Assembly: GCA_965112155.1 (NCBI GenBank)
Contig: OZ218103.1
DNA length: 64,000 nucleotides
Source: Podarcis liolepis
Lineage: Eukaryota
Strand: one strand, 5' to 3'
In this document: in pieces, positions 17,219-37,600 of the stretch
Layout: every line of letters starts with the position of its first letter
Position numbering within the stretch: the first letter of the stretch is position 1
Made by a program: the position numbers and the translations under genes
The notes under the pieces: generated by a model
Seen by the model: only the letters and a program-made list of their open reading frames with translations
Database searches by the model: none
What the model was told of the DNA's origin: nothing

Positions 17219-17845
<627 letters not shown>

Positions 17846-20800
17846 TAATCTGTGCTTGCATCCACCATGCTGGTTGGCAGCATGGCTGTGATAGTGGTTG
17901 AAGTTTAACCAGTAGTGGAAAGGATATAGACATCCTGTGTTGTATTGCAAAGCTGTTAATAAAAGGGGATTGCAAAAACATGAGGATTTTTCTACATTGT
18001 AACCTAACATTCTGCCTTTTTGAAGCTTTTTCATAAGTACGGAACTGTAGTATGAAGATGGAGACTGTATGTACAAAATATTTCTAGGCCTGGTTAAAGA
18101 TTGGAAATGAGGGTGCTGTGTATTTCTGAGTGATTATTTTGCTCAACATGTTCAAAGTCCACTATTTTGTGAGTAAATCAGTAATAACTATAAAAAAACC
18201 TTACAAGCCCAATATGTAATACAGTATGGTTAAATATCCAAAATTTGGCCGCCTTAAGAAAAAACACTGAGCACGCAGTGATGACTCCTCACAGATACAC
18301 AAACTGTCGATTTTAATTGCCATTGGTAAGAAAACACCTGCCTAATGAAAGAGGGGGAAACAAAAAGTTCCTGGTAACCTCCGCCTGTGGGTAGATTATT
18401 ATTGCTTTTAAAGGATGGGTTGCTAGTTTAACACGTGAGATTCAGGAAAATGGATCATGCATTGTTTGCAACTGTACTTCTGGCTGTGACTATCATATAC
18501 CTGCCACTAGTAACAGATAAGTGCTGTTACTGATCAAGACAGTGTGCATTTTCCCGTAACCTTGTTTTAGTCAAATTCATAGTTTCTCAGTAATTAGGCC
18601 TAGCAGTTTCAAAGCAAGCCACTTGTCTCTCTGTGACTCAGACATTTCAATATTTCAGTTTGGATCAGATTGGAGAGGAAATTTAATAAGCTTAACAGTT
18701 TTAATTTGATCTAGCATTTTTAGGTGCTAGGTACATTGGTGGCTGTTGGATGGTCTTATGGAAAATGGTAATTGGTCTTTGTTGTGTGACATCTTGTCAT
18801 TTAGTAATGTTGTTGAAATCATTGGCATGTATGATTATGAAGAGGTTTTGTGCTTTTCTCCTAGAAATGATGGCTTGCTTTAAGTTTGCAGATATACGTG
18901 ATTCTGCATTGTGTACTTACGCTGAGTGACACGTCCAAAAATATTGGTGAATATGCGATGTGTTTCTGAAGTGCTGTGGTGTGGATGCTTTTTCATTTAT
19001 TTTTTAAAAGAATAAATACCAGTGTTCAATTTGTTAATTAAGAACTGCCTATGATAGACTGTAGACCCAACTTCATTGTAGGATTTTCTGTGAGACTTTA
19101 TGGAAACCTGATGAATCGGTTAAAGATTTAAAATATGGATGCTTTCATTAAAAATGTTTGGTGCTAACAGCATGTTGCAAACTATCTTCATACATCTGTT
19201 GACTCAGGACATGCATTGTAGATTGATTTTTAAAATAATCCATGGCAGTTAATTGAAAGTAGTTGTTATATTGATTACAAATACTCATAGTATAACCTTA
19301 ACAAAGTTACTGTTATATATTAATGCAATCAGGCATAATATAATCAATTGCTTCCATTATGGAATATATATCTGGCAATATTCTGTGGTACGGTTGTGTT
19401 GCTATGCTAACAATAGAGCCTAGTAAATCTGGTAATGATCACCTTTGTGAGCTTTGACTCTCTCTCTTTTTAAGGATGCCAATGGTATTTTCATATATAG
19501 GTAAACTGCTTTTGAGGGAGTATTCATGTTTGCAGATCCTTATAAAATGTGTTTTTTTACATCTTAACTTACTTTTTCCGCAGGTGTAATATATCACACT
19601 CTTTTTCAGTTCGTTTGTGTTGTAGAAAATATTTCAATGACGCTGTGTATTTGAGAACGTAGTAACAATTTGCATTACGATCGGACAACCTTCATTGGGG
19701 TAATGGTTGTAGTTTCTTTCTTTTTTGCACTGATGTATCCCAGACTCCTTTGTTAAACCTGAACGTTGGCCAAGTTAATAGTGATTGGCTCTTGCAGAGC
19801 TGCAGTAATGGCAACTTGTACTGTATGCGCAACAAGAGCATTTCGGAAGAAAATCTTAAAGGCCCTTTGTCTTCAGATCAACCTGATTTGCCTTAAAAGA
19901 TTTACTGACCTTATAGTTATGCTGCGATAGTTGCCAATAAAAATGTATAAACTAATAGGCAGGTTGATCAACGTATATACAGCTGAGCTGAGGAGCGTCT
20001 TCTATATCCCCAAAGGTCTGCAAACAGAAAATGTTTCTTTCTACTTAAAAGTTTTGAGAAGTTGCCAGTGTTGGCAAGAGGTTCAGACTCCAAAACGTGC
20101 TTTCAGATATTTGCCAAAACCATTGTGGCCTTTTCACTCAGAGTGCTATTATTTCGTGTACTGTTCCAAGATACTTTAATTCCTGATGATTTCTGCAGTA
20201 TGATGTCCCTTTCCTTCTTAAATATGTATTTATAACAATTGTGTAGAGGACTCTTTCCCTCCTTCTTCTTTGCCCCCTCCTTGTGCCAGGACATAGTCAT
20301 TTGCAAGAAAATCATGTGCTCAAATCTAAACAATGCTCCTGCTTGCGAAGTAAGTCTGAGCCACAAAAACAAATTATTCTCCTAAGGAAATCATGCAGAA
20401 ACAGGGATGTAAAATTTGACAATTATGTGAACTAGCTTGCAAAGATTGAAAGAAAACTGAATAAAAGAATTTATGAGCAAAGAGGTGGCTAAAGTACACT
20501 GAAATTAAAACCTTGGTTTCAATTCGGAGTTTTAGCTTTCTTTTTTAAGGCCATCAAAATACAGTAGTGCTACCTTTAACTTTGGATAGCTTTTCCCCTC
20601 TTAGTTCTCTAGCCCATGTATCAAATGGCAACTTGGAAACTGTTGTGACAAACAGTATTCTTTGTGGGAGTATAATACCAAAGTAAATTTATGACCAGCC
20701 CTTTACCAGATGATCTGTATCAGAATCTGCAATATACTTGGCACGTGGCAGGGTCACCATTTAAGTTGTTAGGGTCATAACCTTCGCCACCAGGCATTTG

Positions 20801-28332: not shown

Positions 28333-30498
28333 TAATATATATCTTTGCATACCTATGGAATGTCTGTATATGTAGAAACCGCTGCTTCATTTTTTGTTGT
28401 GTCAATTTTAGTCAAAATCAGTTGGTACCCAAACTCCTCATTATTGTCAGAGGGAAGGATTGGGATTGAATCCAAATAACTATGATTGGGTGTAGAAAAT
28501 GTTTTAGTGTCACTCTTTGAACTTTTGCCTAAGTTAAGATTTCTTATGTACAGTGTCACTGTGTGTCAGGGGTTTGATTACGATATGAGAAACACATTGA
28601 ATAAGAAGCAAAGAAGGTGAAGCGTAGACCATAAAAAGGTCTTGAGGTGAGCTTTCACATTGATAGGCAATATTAATTCTGTATTTACTATAGAATCTAT
28701 CGCTGTTTCATTGTGTTACCATCAATAATAAACCTTGCCTATATCCAAGGTCTCTTAAACCTCATTGAAGCCAACGACATTTAAGCAACCTACGTAAATC
28801 CAAGAAGGATTGCAGGCCAAGAGTGAAATCCATTGTGCTGTGGAATGTCTTAGGTTCCAGTATCCACTAACACAGACAATTTTCTTCAGTTCCCCCTTTT
28901 CTCTGTGGCTACCTGCACCTTTGAAAATCTCAAGACCAGTGTGGAAGGTAGCATAGGACAGGGCTTCAGGTAGAAATGGATAAAATTACTTCCCTTTATC
29001 TTACTGCTGTGTGTCTCAGCTGGATCAAACACCATTTTGCAAGTGCAACAACAGCATTGCATTCTCCCCCTATAGTTTTTATTATTACAGTTGCCCACTC
29101 TAGTTATTTGCACATTGTTCATGTGCACCAATGAAATTTTTCTGATGATTTAGCCCTACATAACCAGTCTTTAGAAGGCTCTTTGTAACATCAAACATTA
29201 TAAAAGTAAATGATTAATATGATAATCTAATAAAAATGGGTATTTTGAAATGCCATCATATAATTCTGATCCATAGTGCAAATAAAAGCTTGCATACAGC
29301 TGCGTTGTGTTTAAACTAAGGTCTGTAACTTCAACTTTTGATTTTAATTAAACCTGGAGGGTAAGCAAATGCTCTTCACATAGTTATGTTCAGCTAAAAG
29401 TAAAGTTGGCATGATGGACCCACCCCCCATTTTCTGCTTGCTATTACCAGTACTCCAAGATAAATCTTTTTAATTGCAGTTGTACATAACACATGAGGAA
29501 CTTTTCAAAAACCCTACCATTTTAGGCATTAATAGAGCTGAGGGGTCTGTATTTGCATCAAAGGTAAATACAAAACTCAATGAATATTAGTGATTTTGTA
29601 GGTGTTCTTAAAATTTTCATTCTGGGAATAATTGCCTGATACGTTTATGAAGTATATTAGTTCCTATTATAAAAGTGGCTTAATGAAGTCAAGGAATTAT
29701 TTCAAAGTAGTCATGTGTGTGTTTGGTGTTACCGTCTTCTAATTTTTCAGTAATAATCATCAAGAAGATGGGTTGAGTGAACTAGTGCCACTGACAATAA
29801 GCTGAAACGATATTTGGTTATATGTTCCTTTCCTTGGTAGTATCCTGGCCTGATCCAGGGGTTGGAGAATATGGATTGCATTCCTAGTTCTCCCATCACT
29901 TCTGGTACTATGGTCCTTCCTGCTCACTTTATCCACCATATGCTGTAATCTGGATGATCATAGAGTGTATTCATCCCTTATTGTGTGACTTTCTAAACAA
30001 ATAGAGCCTGCTGTGCAGTTCCCTAATGCACTGTGCTCAGGCATCATTCACCAAGTGAGTGCTGAGGTAGGCTGAAAAGGACCAGTCAGTACAATCCAGT
30101 GACAGGTTGCCTAATGGGTGCCAGATGGGGGCATTTAAAGTGCTGCATCATCAGATTTGCCCAATAGACTCCCTTTCCCCCATCCCCAAAGCCATTTGTT
30201 TCATGCAACTGATACCTTAGCTTTTCTGAATGAAAGCAAACCTAAAAGGCAACAGTTGAGATTTAAAAAAATATTTAATTTGTATCATTTTGGGTTGAAA
30301 AAAGTCACCTAGACTATTTAAAAGTATACATATATGTGTAATGTTTACTCTGAAAATAATCAGCATGTCTTACATGAATATTATGTGACCTGTAGTCCTT
30401 TAAAATATAATTGTGGTCATTTAATTATGGTTGGAGAGAGCAGATAGGAGGATATCCTGCAGAACACATTAGCTATTACTCCAATATGCATTGGAGCA

Positions 30499-31266
30499 TT
30501 GATTACTTTTTTAGATCATAATCTGGCCAGTTTCATTTTTAGAGCTAAAAACCTATTCAAAAAAGAAAGAATAGTTCTGTTAAGAATATTTGAAAATAGA
30601 GCACCTGCAACCTCTCTGATAGGGCCCAAGAGCATAGGAGTGGAAGTTCACAAAAGGGAAAAAACCAACCACCAAAACCATCGAAATAGAAAGCATAAGC
30701 TCCAGCAGGATCATCCCCACCAAACAGCACCAAATGAAAAAAAGGAAGCCTCACATCCAACTGGCGTCGGGCCTCCCACGTGGGATAGTGAGGACTCCGT
30801 TTGGGAGGAAGAACTCTCGCTGATAAAGCGATTCTGGTCACTGCATTCTCCAGCTCAAACTGAGATCCTGAAAAGATTTGATTTACTTCGAAGCAGACTA
30901 GAAAAAAAGGATGATCAAGGTGAGACAATGAAGGACCCTTATGTGCAGCCCATATCTCCCAAATGTCTGGTGGATAAGAAGACAGTGGGAGGCACCTTTA
31001 AATGTGTAGACGTGGAATTACAATCAGAGCCCCCTGTGATGTACAATAAAGTAAGACCAAAGCAAGGTGTGAAACCTCAAAGCTCCTGGCACAGCTATCT
31101 TAAATTGTCTCCGAATGAATTAGCTTCCCCCCCAACTCCAAAATCTAGCCCCAAATCACCAAGAAAAGAGGATCACTACACTCTCTCCAAGCAGCCAGCC
31201 TCGAAAAGAACCAACGGGTGTGTTTTTTTAGACACCAAAGAATTGCTGGACATGGTGGTGACATAG
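30499..31266 (+). CDS. LINE ORF1, C-terminal part (no native start codon)
   Basis: 255-codon open frame directly upstream of and overlapping ORF2. LITF...ASFIFRAKNLFKKERIVL resembles the end of a LINE ORF1 RRM/CTD region (inference), followed by basic and S/P-rich linkers. Confidence 0.65.
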   Translation: MITFLDHNLASFIFRAKNLFKKERIVLLRIFENRAPATSLIGPKSIGVEVHKREKTNHQNHRNRKHKLQQDHPHQTAPNEKKEASHPTGVGPPTWDSEDSVWEEELSLIKRFWSLHSPAQTEILKRFDLLRSRLEKKDDQGETMKDPYVQPISPKCLVDKKTVGGTFKCVDVELQSEPPVMYNKVRPKQGVKPQSSWHSYLKLSPNELASPPTPKSSPKSPRKEDHYTLSKQPASKRTNGCVFLDTKELLDMVVT

Positions 31267-34200
31267 ATCCAGCTCCCCGAAGGGCCCGGGGCCTAAAAGT
31301 GCTGTCTTGGAATATCGCGGGTTGGCACGCCAAGAAAAATAATCAACAATTTTTGTGCTACCTTAAGCAATTTGACATCATCTTCTTTCAGGAGACATGG
31401 CAGAATGACCCTATATTTCTTAATGGGTATAACTGCCACTACCTGCCTGCCTCTCCATCTCAAAGGGGCGGCAGATCTAGTGGTGGCCTAGCTTGCTTCA
31501 TTTCCACGGAGCTAGCGCACTCTCTAACAGCCCTACCCAGCTGCAATTCCTTAGCAACAGCCGCTCTACTTAGCTTCAAGAGAACTTTTCTCTTGCTGGT
31601 CAATGTCTATATTCCCCCAGGCCAAAAAAAACCCGTTGTTAAGGCTACATGGGCTGAGCTAGAGGCGTTCTTAGAGCCTCTCGAATCTACTTACCCGTCT
31701 GCCCTGACTATTGTGTGTGGAGACTTCAATGCTCGTATAGGAACAGATGACAACAGTCTATACACTCATTTCAACCAATTTATGGACCCTGAAGAACAGA
31801 CGGATATTGGCGCGACACGTCTGTCCAAAGATAGTAGAAGTAATTTTCCAGGTCTCTGCTTAGTGCAGGCTGCTAGACGGAGGGAACTGCTGATATTAAA
31901 CGGCAATATAGAGGGGGACCGCCCCGGGGAATATACCCATTTCTCCAAGGCTGGGGGAAGTGTTATAGATTATATCTTAATCTCAAGATTTGCTCACAGC
32001 TTTATAAGGAAGTTTCAAGTGGGCCATAATACTCTGAGTGATCACCTACCTCTAATTTTAGAGCTTGCAGGTGGGCCTTTTGACTATTCTATTGCCGAGC
32101 CACAATATATACCTTCTGTAAATTTGGATATACCTGCCCCCAAAAGACTCAAATGGTCCCCAATATTGAATGAAAACCTAACCCTCCTTCTTCAGTCAGT
32201 GGAGTTAAAGCTTATTCGCTCCGCTATTGTATCAGGAAATTCAGCAGCTGCGATTATGGAACGCTTTAAATTACTCTTGGAAAGATTGAAACCCCATTTA
32301 ACAACAGTGATACATAGCTCCGCTACAAAGAGGGCAAAGGACGGAGCTAGCTGGTTTGACCTGGAGTGCAGGCAAACAAGGAGACAAATGAGAACAGCCT
32401 ACCGGAGATACAGGAAATCAGGGACTGCCCTCCTACTTAATGCTTATATTTATCTGAGACGGTCGTACAAACAATTATTAAGGAGAAAGAAACTGGAAGC
32501 TGAAAGAGCCGCATGGCACAGGTTGGTTAAGGCATCGCACGAGAAAGATACTACTTGCTTTTGGCGAACCATATCTGGTCTACTGGACCAGGAGCGTACT
32601 AATTCCATCTGTACAGTGGAACCAATGGAGTGGTTGCGCCATTTTCAATCTTTGTTCTATGACCAGGAAGCCCAACATTACAAACTATGCATTCAACTGG
32701 AGGACCTACCTCATTGGCCAGCAGTAACTGCGAAGGAAGTTGAGAATTTAATCGCACAACTAAAGAACAACAAGGCCCCAGGGAATGATTACATCCCTGC
32801 CGAACTTCTGAAGTCCAACATTGGCTGGTGGGCCCCCCTGCTGGCGTCTTTATTTTCTTGGATCGACTCAACGGGTTTACTTCCAGATGGTTGGACTGAG
32901 GCAATAATTATCCCAATCTATAAAAAAGGACCCATGACAGATCCGGCGAGTTATAGACCAATCAGCCTTCTGCCTATACCCAGCAAACTATATGCCAAAC
33001 ATCTTTATACCAAGCTAACTAGCTGGCTGGAAACTGAAGCTATTCTAGCGGAAGAGCAAGCGGGTTTCAGGCAAGGCAGATCCACCATAGACCATTGCTT
33101 CACCCTAGCCTATTTAATTGACAAATATGCCAAAAAATCCCGTGGGGTGTTATATGCAGCATTTATCGATCTAAAGGCTGCTTTCGATTCAATTCCACGT
33201 GTAAGACTCTGGGACAAATTGAGCACCTCTAGCATAGACAAAAGACTATTATTTCTGATCAGCTGTTTATACAAAGACACGGTGCTGCATGTAAGAACTT
33301 CGTTAAATGGCCATCTTATAGGACCAGTTCCTGTCAGTAAGGGGGTCAAGCAAGGTTGCATCCTGGCCCCAGTTCTATTCAACATCTACATCAATGATAT
33401 GGTTAACTGTTTGTCATCTCCGGACTTCCACGCCCCCAAACTGGCTGACAAAGCAATATCAGTGCTTTTGTACGCTGACGATGCGATACTCCTATCCCGA
33501 ACAAGAATAGGTTTAAATAGGCTCATAGGTGAATTCTCAGCATACTGTAGAAGAGAGCAACTTGCAATAAACTATCAGAAAACCAAAATCATGGTTTTTG
33601 CAAGGAAACACAGACAGTACAGCTGGAGGATGGATAACCAGACAATTGAACAAGTCAAAGCCTTCAAATATCTGGGTATCGTTTTCCAGTCGACCGGGTC
33701 CTGGGATGTCCATCAAAAATATGCCAAAGAAAAAGCTGCTCAAAGCATCAAGATGCTGTCCCGCTTCTTCTACACGAAGGGGGGCAGATACATCCCAGCA
33801 GCCCTTGAAGTTTTCCAAGCAAAACCTCTGGCGCAGTTACTGTACGGGGCGCAAATCTGGACGGGGATCCATTGCTCCAGTCTTGAAACTGTCCAGTCCA
33901 AATTTCTAAGGCAGATACTCGGTGTCCCCTCCTGTGTTCCAAACGCAGCATTACGACTCGAGGCCTGCCTTCCATCTGTGGAAACTCGGACCTGGCAGAG
34001 AACATTTAATTATTGGCTTCGTCTTAATCTGAATCCTCCTGGTCTACTGCCGCTAGTAATGCAAGACCCTCACAAAAGCAAGTGGTTTAAAACTGTGCAT
34101 CAAAAACTCCTTACATGCGGTCTGCACTCACAGTCCCTACTATCAATGGGCCTCATTAAAGCAAAGAGTCTAATAGGCCAGCGCCTGAAAGACATTGAAC

Positions 34201-34628
34201 GACAAAACAACCTGACTATCTTAAAGAAACTGTGCCCATGGTATACCTACTTTCCCCCTTCTCATTTTGACTCTCCAGCCTCATATTTGTCTAAATTAAC
34301 CATCCCAAAATACAGACGTGCCTTTACATTGGCTAGATGGGATGTTCTTCCCTCTGCTGTACTCGAAGGTCGTTACCAAAAGACTCCATTTGAAAAACGA
34401 CTCTGCCCATGTGGAGATGGTAACACGGAAACAGTGTCCCACGTCCTTCTTTCTTGCCCCCTTTACAAAGACCTAAGGAATGAGATTATTACTCCACTCA
34501 TTCTCTCCAACCCCGGCCGTTCACCTGACATTACACTGTATTTTCTATTATCTGATACGGATAGTCAGATAACAGAGAAGGTCGCGAGGTACATCGAGAG
34601 AGCTGCGAAATTGAGGGCCACCATCTGA
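31218..34628 (+). CDS. LINE ORF2: APE endonuclease + reverse transcriptase + C-terminal CCHC motif
   Basis: APE motifs LSWNIAG, FQETW, GDFNAR, SVIDY, SDHLP; RT motifs KAPGND, YRPISLL, QAGFR, FIDLKAAFDS, GVKQGCILAP, YADD, YLG; C-terminal LEGRY..P.EKRLCPC...ETVSHVLLSCPLY is typical of RTE-X. No stops. Frame open from 31149; first in-frame ATG only at 31782. Confidence 0.97.
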   Translation: MCFFRHQRIAGHGGDIDPAPRRARGLKVLSWNIAGWHAKKNNQQFLCYLKQFDIIFFQETWQNDPIFLNGYNCHYLPASPSQRGGRSSGGLACFISTELAHSLTALPSCNSLATAALLSFKRTFLLLVNVYIPPGQKKPVVKATWAELEAFLEPLESTYPSALTIVCGDFNARIGTDDNSLYTHFNQFMDPEEQTDIGATRLSKDSRSNFPGLCLVQAARRRELLILNGNIEGDRPGEYTHFSKAGGSVIDYILISRFAHSFIRKFQVGHNTLSDHLPLILELAGGPFDYSIAEPQYIPSVNLDIPAPKRLKWSPILNENLTLLLQSVELKLIRSAIVSGNSAAAIMERFKLLLERLKPHLTTVIHSSATKRAKDGASWFDLECRQTRRQMRTAYRRYRKSGTALLLNAYIYLRRSYKQLLRRKKLEAERAAWHRLVKASHEKDTTCFWRTISGLLDQERTNSICTVEPMEWLRHFQSLFYDQEAQHYKLCIQLEDLPHWPAVTAKEVENLIAQLKNNKAPGNDYIPAELLKSNIGWWAPLLASLFSWIDSTGLLPDGWTEAIIIPIYKKGPMTDPASYRPISLLPIPSKLYAKHLYTKLTSWLETEAILAEEQAGFRQGRSTIDHCFTLAYLIDKYAKKSRGVLYAAFIDLKAAFDSIPRVRLWDKLSTSSIDKRLLFLISCLYKDTVLHVRTSLNGHLIGPVPVSKGVKQGCILAPVLFNIYINDMVNCLSSPDFHAPKLADKAISVLLYADDAILLSRTRIGLNRLIGEFSAYCRREQLAINYQKTKIMVFARKHRQYSWRMDNQTIEQVKAFKYLGIVFQSTGSWDVHQKYAKEKAAQSIKMLSRFFYTKGGRYIPAALEVFQAKPLAQLLYGAQIWTGIHCSSLETVQSKFLRQILGVPSCVPNAALRLEACLPSVETRTWQRTFNYWLRLNLNPPGLLPLVMQDPHKSKWFKTVHQKLLTCGLHSQSLLSMGLIKAKSLIGQRLKDIERQNNLTILKKLCPWYTYFPPSHFDSPASYLSKLTIPKYRRAFTLARWDVLPSAVLEGRYQKTPFEKRLCPCGDGNTETVSHVLLSCPLYKDLRNEIITPLILSNPGRSPDITLYFLLSDTDSQITEKVARYIERAAKLRATI

Positions 34629-37600
34629 GTGACAGACCTGTTCACCCGACGGACCTCCTTTTGCCTGTTCTTTTCTTCCTTTTATCCCTATTCTCACTTT
34701 TAACTCTTGTACAGCTGTGGCCTGTTGGCTTTGCTAATAAAGTTTTGATTTGATTTGCTAATCTTGTTAACTTTGCTTTCCAGTTCTTAATTTTATTTTA
34801 TATTCTGTATGTATGTTTGTATATAAAATATTTGGAGAATGATGTCAGAGGTCTGCTATGAAATTTGAAGTGAGGGCAATGATGGTTTGTGAGCTATAGC
34901 AGCAAGTGAGGGATCAATGTGTTCAGAGGGGCAGGGACTCAGGAGAGGGAAGGCTACAAATGTAACAGTTTTAATTATTTGCATATATGTAATGTACAAA
35001 AGAGAAGGGGGAGGGGTTGCCAGGCTTTATCAAACTGGTCAAAATGCAGCCCACATATTCTTTTTAAAAGAATATATTTCTGCATACACTCACAATAAAT
35101 TGTAGAAAGATCACTAGGAGTCAGATCTTGAAAGACTGGATTGTCTTGATTAAAGAACAAGTCTTTAAAGATGTTGCATACCCCTACTGGGTGGAAAACA
35201 ATATACCTTAAAATGGGAAGAAAATTGTTACTCCCAAGTGCTTTCATGGTCACATAGCTATGATGACTGAGTTTATGCACGAATGGGTAGCACTTGATTA
35301 TTGCAGAATCAAGTGATGACTTGCATGCGTGAACAATATGATACAATAAATATTTATTGCTTGTAGCCATAGGCCATTGCATGCAATACACATAAAAAGC
35401 AAATGTCTACAACACAGACATAAAATATGAGTAATTACGTTACCCACTTCTCATTTAACATGCAGACATGTGTGAACAAGCCAACATAGTTCCGCTCTCA
35501 TGTAGCATAGGAACCACGGTAGCATAGTACATTCCTGTGCTGCTGGGGTTACTTGAGAAGCCGTGGGCCATGAGGAAGGAGCACACACTTTCTCCTTCTG
35601 ACACTAGAACTGTTCCAGTTTCAGATTGAGGGAGGGAACAGTCCACACTTTTAGGGGTGAGCCAACAAGTGGTGTGTTATGGAAGGATTTACATGCATAC
35701 ATACATTTGCTGAACCTATTCTAGAGGCATATTTGCCCAGGATTTTCAAGTTTGGTTTTGTGCCTTAGTACAGTATTTCTCAACATTTCCAGGACCCAAC
35801 TAAGTTTCTAAGTCCATAGTCGTACCAACACTGTGACCCACCTTAGATCAGGTTGATACCTAATAATGCGTCGTCTCAACTCACCACTTGAAGATTCAGT
35901 GGTTTATGGCTTGTGTGTGTGTGTGTTCAGATGACCTCATATACAAATTATGGGAGCCGTGTTCTTTTTTCGGAAGACATACCATTAAATGGGCTCCATA
36001 TTCCTAAACTGAACTGGAATCACTCTTACTGATCGTTATACTATGTAATTTTTCTGTCTCCCACAAGCATTGCTTATTTTTTCTCATTCACTCACTCCAT
36101 TGTTTGGGTACTGTGCCATCCAGCCTTATCAAAATATTTTTCATTTTGGCATGTTAGAAAAGTGACAGCTGGGTCAGAGATGCAGACATGAATAGACATA
36201 AGGAAGGGCCAGGATCTGTGTGGTGAATAAACGCCTCTCCCAGGATCTGCTCCCTTTTGTTTCCTAATCTTCAGCATAAAACTGCCATAACCATGTGCTC
36301 TGTCTGTGACCAGCCCCTTCCCCCAACCCTAGCAAAGACTGAAGTCTCTTCTTCTAAATAACCTTTTACGTTGCTGGACCTGCACCCTAAGAGTTCCATG
36401 CATTAGTCTGCCTTGGATCTCAGTGCTGCTATTTCCCAGTGTCTAGTTACAGATCTGTCTGTAATACTTATCTGTTCCTTTATTGTCTGTGTTGCTTAGC
36501 TCCCCTTAATCTCTGTCAGAATGCAAAAAATCTGTGTGTCCGGTTTCAGTGTCGCTCACAGTACTTTTAATAACTTTGTGTTCCCTTTGATTTCAGTTAT
36601 CAGAAACTGCACGGCTGGGTTTTCCTGTATCATGCTCAGTGGCAGGCTCATAATGGATTGTTCCTCCAAAGAGATGATGCAGTAGCTGAATTTGCCTAGG
36701 TCTTCCAAGCCTCTTCTCCCTGAATATCCTTTTTCATTTGTTTTTGTTTTGTTATTGGCCCTGCAACTTCAGAAGATGCATTTTGTTCACTTGCTAATGG
36801 TTTGGACACACTGGCTCCTTGGTAGTTACAAATCTTGGTAGTTACAAAATTAACTATATACCAAATCTGCAAGTTATACAAAGATTATTTGATTGCTTGA
36901 TCGACTGTGAAAGCAAACCCCCACACAGTATAAGCAGAATAAGAGCTTATGTAGATCTTGTTGCTGATAGAAGGTTAGATACTCTATTCTAATTAAAATA
37001 AATTCCAGCAGCATAATATAGAACAGAATAAGGGATGTTGGTGGTCTGTAGGAAAAGAGCCGTAGATATAAGTAGATATGTGACCTGAGTATGTTTTCCT
37101 TCATGGCTGTATGATTCTCATGCCTAGAACACTTTTATTCTCAAAATATTAACAGATTTTGTCTTCAATATTTAACAAAACCTTTCTCTGAATTATACCC
37201 TTTTATTTTTAAAGCCAAATCTGGAGTTTTGAGGAATCTGAAAGACAACACCTGATTCTCTGCTGGAAGCTTGTAGCAGTACAATAAGCCATTGTGTCTC
37301 AGGATAACAGTGGCCTATTGGTTTAGACTGAGGTCTCAAGAGTCCATGGAATCTCCAGTTTGAATCAAGCTGGCAGTTTCCCTCCTTTTAAACATATTAT
37401 GCACGTGCCTCATCCCTGATTGGCATGACCACACAAAAAGGCCATTTGTAGTTGTTTGCACATGCACATCTAGAACTAGTACTGTGGCATTTTTTTCAAG
37501 TGTCAACATTGGGCCTGCTACACTGGGCCCAAGTTCAGATACATTTGCTGCACAGCGTCCTGCACTCTGGGGGAGCAGTCGATGGAGCACAGCTGCTGAT

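Follow-up and report, generated by a model that had tools for sequence, protein, structure and literature searches.

How long interspersed nuclear elements (LINEs) translate their second open reading frame (ORF2) is an open question. TRE5-A and TRE3-A of Dictyostelium, retrotransposons lacking long terminal repeats (non-LTR elements) of the apurinic/apyrimidinic endonuclease (APE) type with two ORFs, the second carrying an APE, a reverse transcriptase (RT) and a zinc finger, are said to depend on a -1 frameshift for the translation of ORF2; they are amoebozoan and target tRNA genes, and the available part of that account gives no slippery site or test (PMC5911963). In Paramecium, +1 frameshifting, reinitiation or readthrough of the ORF1 stop has been suggested for the non-LTR Groups 1-3, with frameshift/reinitiation groups and a readthrough group standing within a single LINE clade of a ciliate, for which the accessible text gives a consensus layout only and names no slippery heptamer (PMC5405496). 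HeT-A requires a frameshift within gag, and U_UUU_UUA is the HIV shift site, with Leu or Phe incorporated at the junction (passages of PMC5009743). Reinitiation is given for ORF2 of both L1 and SART1, whose bicistronic RNAs yield a separate ORF2 protein (ORF2p) across a 63-nt spacer in L1 and by stop-start overlap in SART1 (as described in the available parts of PMC5972666, PMC1965478 and PMC5009743); the start of L1 ORF2 can be AUG-independent, and elsewhere its route is called an unknown type of initiation, with bypassing set aside (in the portion available of PMC5009743). Here we analyse the ORF1-ORF2 junction of a lizard LINE on the plus strand of a 64,000-nucleotide stretch of Podarcis liolepis DNA (contig OZ218103.1 of assembly GCA_965112155.1; hereafter the window), for which an initial annotation had proposed an HIV-type -1 frameshift stimulated by a downstream pseudoknot or hairpin.

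In this element ORF2 overlaps ORF1 by 118 nt in the -1 frame, and the ORF2 frame has no ATG before codon 212 (31782), which follows the endonuclease motifs SWN, QET and GDFNA. The initial annotation had placed the ORF1 stop, the overlap and this ATG correctly, and its T TTT TTA heptamer at 31224-31230 was confirmed from the sequence to lie in ORF1 phase. The features of the junction are listed below; the subfamilies of the lineage with this layout are lettered A to F.

30496..31266, plus strand: last 256 codons of ORF1 and its stop, TAG at 31264-31266
31149..34628, plus strand: ORF2 frame, open for 1159 codons, with APE, RT and a C-terminal CCHC motif
30507..30513, plus strand: second in-phase U UUU UUA, inside ORF1, used as an internal control; not conserved in subfamilies C, D and E
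31220..31232, plus strand: GTGTTTTTTTAGA, the longest invariant run across subfamilies A-D
31224..31230, plus strand: U UUU UUA heptamer in ORF1 phase, within the overlap; predicted -1 shift site
31231..31292, plus strand: linker from the heptamer to the APE domain in the ORF2 frame, likely dual-coding
31233..31273, plus strand: pseudoknot or hairpin of the initial annotation, present as sequence and not conserved
31263..31266, plus strand: ATA, a near-cognate start codon in the ORF2 frame that shares bases with the TAG of ORF1; possible restart point if ORF2 were reached by reinitiation
31275..31291, plus strand: small hairpin 44 nt behind the heptamer, with 85.7% of cells paired and one-sided changes only
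31293..31296, plus strand: CTAA, the first Leu codon of LKVLSWN overlapped by an ORF1-frame TAA

We consider it probable that -1 ribosomal frameshifting at this heptamer makes an ORF1-ORF2 fusion, and that the arrangement is likely derived from a readthrough junction. A small share of the ribosomes translating ORF1 would slip back one base at U UUU UUA, while most would end ORF1 normally. The predicted fusion would be about 1760 amino acids long (627 + 2 + 1132 codons), reading ...NGCVF-L/F-RHQR... with Leu or Phe at the junction. The heptamer and its phase are identical to those of HIV-1 gag-pol, where, as far as it is described in the source used here, a structural ORF is likewise fused to an enzyme ORF; the lizard LINE differs in having no conserved structure at a 5-9 nt spacer and no protease to cut the fusion, and in being a non-LTR element. 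It differs from TRE5-A and TRE3-A in being a vertebrate element with a conserved U UUU UUA and with readthrough-type sister families, and from L1 and SART1 in its AUG-less -1 overlap with a conserved slippery site. Our literature search found no description of -1 frameshifting or readthrough between ORF1 and ORF2 in vertebrate LINEs, with Repbase/Dfam and subscription journals, which may note the junction, lying outside its reach.

Full-length members of the family are about 6.1 kb long with an ORF1 of 640 codons. The window copy is 5'-truncated, without the 5' untranslated region (UTR) and 384 of the 640 ORF1 codons, and therefore only records the junction of its family. A DNA search of the same genome returned 39 matches, of which 30 are near copies at 94-100% identity. 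The run is T7 in 29 of these 30 and T8 in one (L029), a 5'-truncated copy in which ORF1 and ORF2 form a single open frame of 1427 codons, so that the consensus with one extra T raised in the initial annotation has no majority among the near copies. The first ATG in the ORF2 frame is codon 212 in 28 of the 30, the other two being L014, which is cut short without an ATG, and the fused L029; apart from L029, none of the near copies carries an in-frame AUG ahead of the APE domain. Contigs from 7 public runs, in which rare variants would be dropped, show no insertion or deletion over the heptamer. Together with the 29 T7 copies, these runs rule out a homopolymer or assembly error at this position. 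The youngest family comprises 21 copies at about 99% identity, and the 1159-codon ORF2 frame is open in most young copies.

The heptamer also persists in diverged subfamilies. The 13 nt of GTGTTTTTTTAGA are invariant, and the next longest invariant run in a 1450-nt alignment is 8 nt (three representatives) or 7 nt (five). Identity among subfamilies A/B, C and D is 0.68-0.72 in the APE domain and 0.50-0.52 in the linker; over the subfamilies compared it is 0.58-0.63 upstream of the site and 0.50-0.66 in the linker. Subfamilies C, D and E were also recovered by a protein search whose query lacked the heptamer, and the intact copy of F (L133) spells ATT TTT TTA GAC. The position of the ORF1 stop shifts from 13 codons behind the Phe codon in A/B to 15 in Zootoca, whose ORF1 end reads ...NGSIFLDKK... 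(protein only), and 23 in C-F, while the heptamer stays put. Its conservation among relatives, left to be checked in the initial annotation, was thus observed, and the heptamer goes together with the -1 layout.

Of the new evidence, the strongest is how this lineage differs from sister families in which the two ORFs share one frame. The ORF1 tail motif NG-x-(I/V)-F-x-D predates the -1 layout, so that part of the invariant run could reflect conservation of the peptide; in the form NGS(I/V)F(L/V)D it is shared with the in-frame sisters. The -1 lineage codes this motif as (G/A)TT TTT TTA GA, whereas the in-frame L107 encodes the same peptide, NGSIFLD, with the non-slippery ATC TTT CTG GAC, and other in-frame spellings are ATC TTT GTG GAC (five copies of the L075 group), ATC TTC ATG GAC (L149) and TAT TTT GAC (L147). 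In columns where three -1 subfamilies share a residue, they share the codon for V in 2/7 and 8/34 columns (0.24-0.29), for F in 1/8 and 10/38 (0.12-0.26, with two-fold codons overall at 0.45) and for L in 5/38 and 17/122 (0.13-0.14), giving a product near 0.01. This low codon sharing, taken with the non-slippery spelling of the sisters, indicates selection on the slippery spelling that is confined to the lineage carrying the -1 offset. By this comparison, the heptamer is kept beyond amino-acid need.

In addition, use of the ORF2 frame seems to begin at the heptamer. The 23 codons from the heptamer to LKVLSWN contain no -1 stops in A, B, C, D2 or either E copy, and at family level the -1 frame is open behind the heptamer in A/B, C, D, E and F. 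The chance of an open linker under synonymous shuffling was 0.46, 0.30, 0.09, 0.27 and 0.07 for these five groups, respectively; within ORF1, windows of 23 codons lack -1 stops in only 10-29% of cases, and upstream of the heptamer the -1 frame holds 2-4 stops in 23 codons in C, D and F. Divergence by ORF1 codon position is 0.20/0.53/0.60 behind the heptamer (30 codon pairs) versus 0.35/0.31/0.54 where only ORF1 is encoded. Behind the site, position 2 of ORF1 codons is therefore as variable as position 3, which fits dual coding. ORF2 itself diverges by 0.24/0.17/0.49, a purifying pattern.

A conserved 3' structure is usual, not universal, in -1 frameshift signals. The three pairings listed in the initial annotation are present as sequence, but the pseudoknot or hairpin stimulator built on them was not borne out. 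Its helices are 62.9% and 50.0% paired in an alignment of 8 copies (7 distinct), their covariation is not above that of shuffles (the score was reached by 214 of 500), and the fold of 31231-31300 does not improve on shuffled sequences (z -0.80 to +0.54). With this low pairing and lack of covariation, we rejected the pseudoknot as a conserved element. At -2.24 kcal/mol the consensus fold is weak, and it contains no compensatory pair; it pairs UUUAG with CUAAA at the stop. In longer windows, C and E fold better than shuffles (z down to -4.7) and A, B, D and F have z near 0. Pairing with the 3' tail was also tried as a candidate: the duplex ranked 10/345 in A and 3/346 in B but 83/351 and 56/349 in C, and is not kept. 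The original frameshift proposal stands on its sequence tests (T7, no early ATG, a conserved heptamer tied to the -1 layout); the stimulator proposed with it is not supported. Slippage, if it occurs, would proceed at a low rate without a conserved structural stimulator. U UUU UUA alone gives a low shift rate, and LINEs need little ORF2p.

To place the -1 layout among its relatives, 58 loci of more distant families were chosen for variety from the matches listed (100 of 416 in one listing), a non-random sample. These formed 17 clusters; L149 was merged with L148/L150, L145 and L154 were dropped for having no upstream ORF, and the L146/L147 cluster was read from L147 only, leaving 14 families. 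Among the matches listed, ORF1 and ORF2 lie in one frame, split by UGA, in 14 of 14 sister families. The UGA is followed by C in 11 of the 14 (CUA in three, CAA in four, CAG in two, CUG and CGG in one each), two of these resting on single copies, and nine of the eleven have A at +9 (loci within L070-L109 and L142-L160). By comparison, ORF2 ends in UGA-C in 0 of 12 of the sister families. In two of the 14 the junction is UGA-(A/U)AU, and an in-frame ATG lies 18 or 30 codons ahead of SWN. The L075 group, L149 and L150 have 34 or 50 open codons between the in-frame UGA and an ATG, so either reinitiation or readthrough could serve there. Viral readthrough contexts include UGACUA, UGACGG, CAR YYA, UGACUG and UGACAG (as given in the available part of PMC13517186). 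The contexts of viral types I/II (UGA followed by CUA, CGG, CUG, CAG or CAR YYA) recur at the sister junctions, a likeness that concerns the sister families and not the family in the window. The sister junctions look tuned for readthrough, suggesting that fusion proteins are used in the clade.

A phylogenetic analysis of APE and RT, from which six loci with coverage below 0.3 were left out, was rooted on five relatives at 25-29% identity; the L107 row is a suspect long branch. The -1 lineage falls together with the L072 and L075 families (ultrafast bootstrap 100; deep nodes 67-82) and is nested among in-frame UGA families, with UGA-C junctions on four branches around it. On grounds of parsimony we infer an in-frame UGA ancestor of the -1 lineage. 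The change would have combined a one-base frame offset with recoding of existing ORF1 (I/V)-F-L codons to a slippery run. We lean, with some reserve, towards the broader proposal that the endonuclease-RT of this vertebrate LINE clade is produced by translational recoding as an ORF1-ORF2 fusion, and that the re-spelling of three ORF1 codons took the clade from UGA readthrough to HIV-type -1 frameshifting; both the -1 lineage and its readthrough-type sisters would then likely make their enzyme as a fused protein, like retroviruses.

Several observations weigh against frameshifting at this junction. An in-phase heptamer on its own is weak evidence, as heptamers arise by chance in an AT-rich ORF1: each of three intact ORF1s holds 2-4 other canonical in-phase heptamers, including that at 30507-30513, and the junction heptamer stands above chance because, unlike that one, it is conserved. 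The subfamilies share ancestry, so the probabilities attached to them are not independent, and L133 was found with a pattern requiring T7 and is not independent either (5 of 7 fetched matches to this pattern, plus L134, were chance matches outside LINEs, with L133 as the sole LINE junction). Among older decayed copies of C-F, the site is intact and in phase in only 7 of 14 (C 4/5, D 2/4, E 0/2, F 1/3). Single private stops, not found in sister copies, interrupt the linker in the ORF2 frame in L032 and L133, and A also has an open -1 frame in the 25 codons ahead of the heptamer. No conserved 3' stimulator was found about 5-9 nt behind the heptamer by folding that was not pseudoknot-aware. Among the sister families, an in-frame ATG lies four codons ahead of SWN in one UGA-C family (in 2 of 3 copies), while L157-L159 have UGA-AGC, no in-frame ATG and an out-of-frame ATG overlapping the stop, an arrangement that neither readthrough nor reinitiation explains. 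Finally, L1 ORF2 tolerates any sense codon at its start (available portion of PMC1965478), and the lack of an AUG therefore does not require recoding.

This tolerance in L1 (PMC1965478, PMC5009743), together with the stop-start coupling used by SART1 (PMC5972666; all three sources available in part), favours AUG-independent termination-reinitiation, in which ribosomes would restart at the ATA at 31263 or at CTA/GTG/CTG within 31293-31304 and the U-rich run would be a cis-element and not a shift site. In the ORF2 frame no AUG overlaps or lies near the ORF1 stop, and none occurs before codon 212, leaving near-cognate codons only. In C-F, the TAA within CTAA at 31293..31296 is the ORF1 stop and overlaps the Leu of LKVLSWN, which aligns with Met1 of a minimal APE, the exodeoxyribonuclease of PDB 5cfe, a further point against frameshifting; in A/B, ATA overlaps TAG. 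All five groups have NTG as the second codon ahead of Ser, UUUAG and CUAAA are paired at the stop in the consensus fold, and UGGGA, which we take to resemble calicivirus termination upstream ribosomal binding site (TURBS) motif 1, lies directly 5' of the U run in C, D and E. However, the youngest family has CGGGU in its place and a stop 30 nt earlier, and the fold is the weak one described above, without a compensatory pair. Reinitiation further leaves unexplained why an in-phase slippery spelling occurs only in the -1 lineage, why the ORF2 frame is open from the heptamer, and the dual-coding pattern, and the readthrough-like sister junctions point instead to fusions in the clade. We therefore regard it as unlikely, though by some distance the most credible of the alternatives.

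The remaining alternatives are far less probable. An AUG or ACG in the ORF1 Asn-Gly codons could open a short third frame (M-G-V-F-F-stop), from which a +1 shift at UUU UAG would lead into ORF2, or subfamilies one base shorter could have the AUG in frame: C, D, E and F have AATGG ahead of the run, and both E copies (L031 and L106) are one base shorter, with ATG in the ORF2 frame and ORF1 ending at TAG. Such a start would require internal or 80-nt backward initiation plus a shift, and the active A/B families have ACG, which makes it very improbable. L031 and L106 lost different bases and carry many gaps, whereas E-type contigs (runs X4 and X5) cover 31207-31256 without a gap and differ there at 8 and 7 letters, 7 being the expectation if the base missing in L031 is present. 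Judging from these counts, subfamily E was rejected as a true AUG-type junction and probably reflects decay after insertion. A similarly slight probability attaches to the RNA being put in frame before translation, through polymerase slippage from T7 to T8, splicing or an internal promoter for an ORF2 mRNA. One copy (L029) does have T8 and a fused frame, but T7 is found in 29 of 30 copies, none is spliced at the junction, and a separate ORF2 mRNA would have no AUG to use. LINE proteins prefer the RNA that made them, and new copies would therefore inherit the T8 or the splice. That ORF2 is not expressed from its own RNA at all, the elements being moved by a sister family's enzyme and the heptamer being one of those that arise in phase by chance, is hardly credible given the open 1159-codon frame in most young copies, the purifying pattern and the conservation of the heptamer beyond amino-acid requirement. 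A search of the subfamily translations for a 2A/StopGo motif of the type D(V/I)ExNPGP found no NPGP ahead of the APE domain. Taken together, the junction feature is real and probably functional, and -1 frameshifting at the heptamer is the explanation that we favour.

The other features of the window copy are as follows.

30494..34757, plus strand: 5'-truncated copy of a young APE-type LINE family; identity to other copies begins at 30494
31302..32045, plus strand: APE endonuclease domain (Pfam PF03372 Exo_endo_phos, amino acids 52-299, E-value 1.6e-12)
32922..33683, plus strand: reverse transcriptase domain (Pfam PF00078, E-value 2e-35)
34736..34757, plus strand: AATAAA and (TTTGA)n 3' tail, read from the sequence; (TTTGA)n tails also occur in full-length copies

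The element has the hallmarks of an APE-type LINE, with an N-terminal APE and an RT in ORF2, no LTRs, 5' truncations and a repeat tail, and the closest solved structure to ORF2 is L1 ORF2p. Duplicated flanks indicative of target-site duplication were seen in L112 and L120, and none was evident around the window copy. Its named database relatives, an ORF2 of Podarcis muralis (69% identity) and an ORF1 of Zootoca vivipara (47%), mark it as a lizard-type element; the nearest relatives outside lizards show 25-29% identity and have no clade name attached. No Pfam family matched the 640-amino-acid ORF1 at E-values up to 1, which neither files the element under RTEX, the clade named in the initial annotation, nor excludes it. 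An ORF1 esterase domain is present in some RTEX elements and is a variable feature.

We also noted a number of further features of the family and its surroundings. A compact domain at ORF1 residues ~320-430 (L112 numbering) is common to all sister ORF1s, with no Pfam match and Atlas matches below 0.9. The motif QSKITSYF / QSKITDFF, which we take to be PCNA-binding-like, lies near the start of ORF1 in some lineages (at the N-terminus in L112) and in others towards the ORF1 C-terminus, some 20 codons ahead of the junction stop (L102, L151, L142, L105). The full-length copies L110, L112, L113, L120 and L121 begin with GGAGGATCCAAGATGGCG, a 5' start that presumably resembles the YY1-site start of L1 elements. 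Near-identical 3' flanks on L116, L117 and L121 suggest insertion into the same repeat, or duplication. Elsewhere in the window, an exon-like ORF at 17219-17848 (plus strand) reads, in our estimation, as a nuclear factor I DNA-binding domain, and the LINE copy may sit in an intron of a nuclear factor I-like gene on the same strand. No RNA data set was listed as carrying the element, and one raw RNA run, the single run searched, gave 1 partial read on it, which is no evidence either way.

If frameshifting at this junction and readthrough in the sister families are confirmed, some vertebrate LINEs would use the retroviral solution, making a fused protein at a set ratio, with a bearing on the way ORF2p reaches its own RNA and on the annotation of ORF2s that lack a true start codon. 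The -1 and readthrough-type junctions would then form a non-LTR counterpart of the dichotomy between murine leukaemia virus (MLV) and HIV Gag-Pol, here among sister families of one genome, which holds as natural variants a -1 overlap, several UGA-C contexts and UGA plus AUG.

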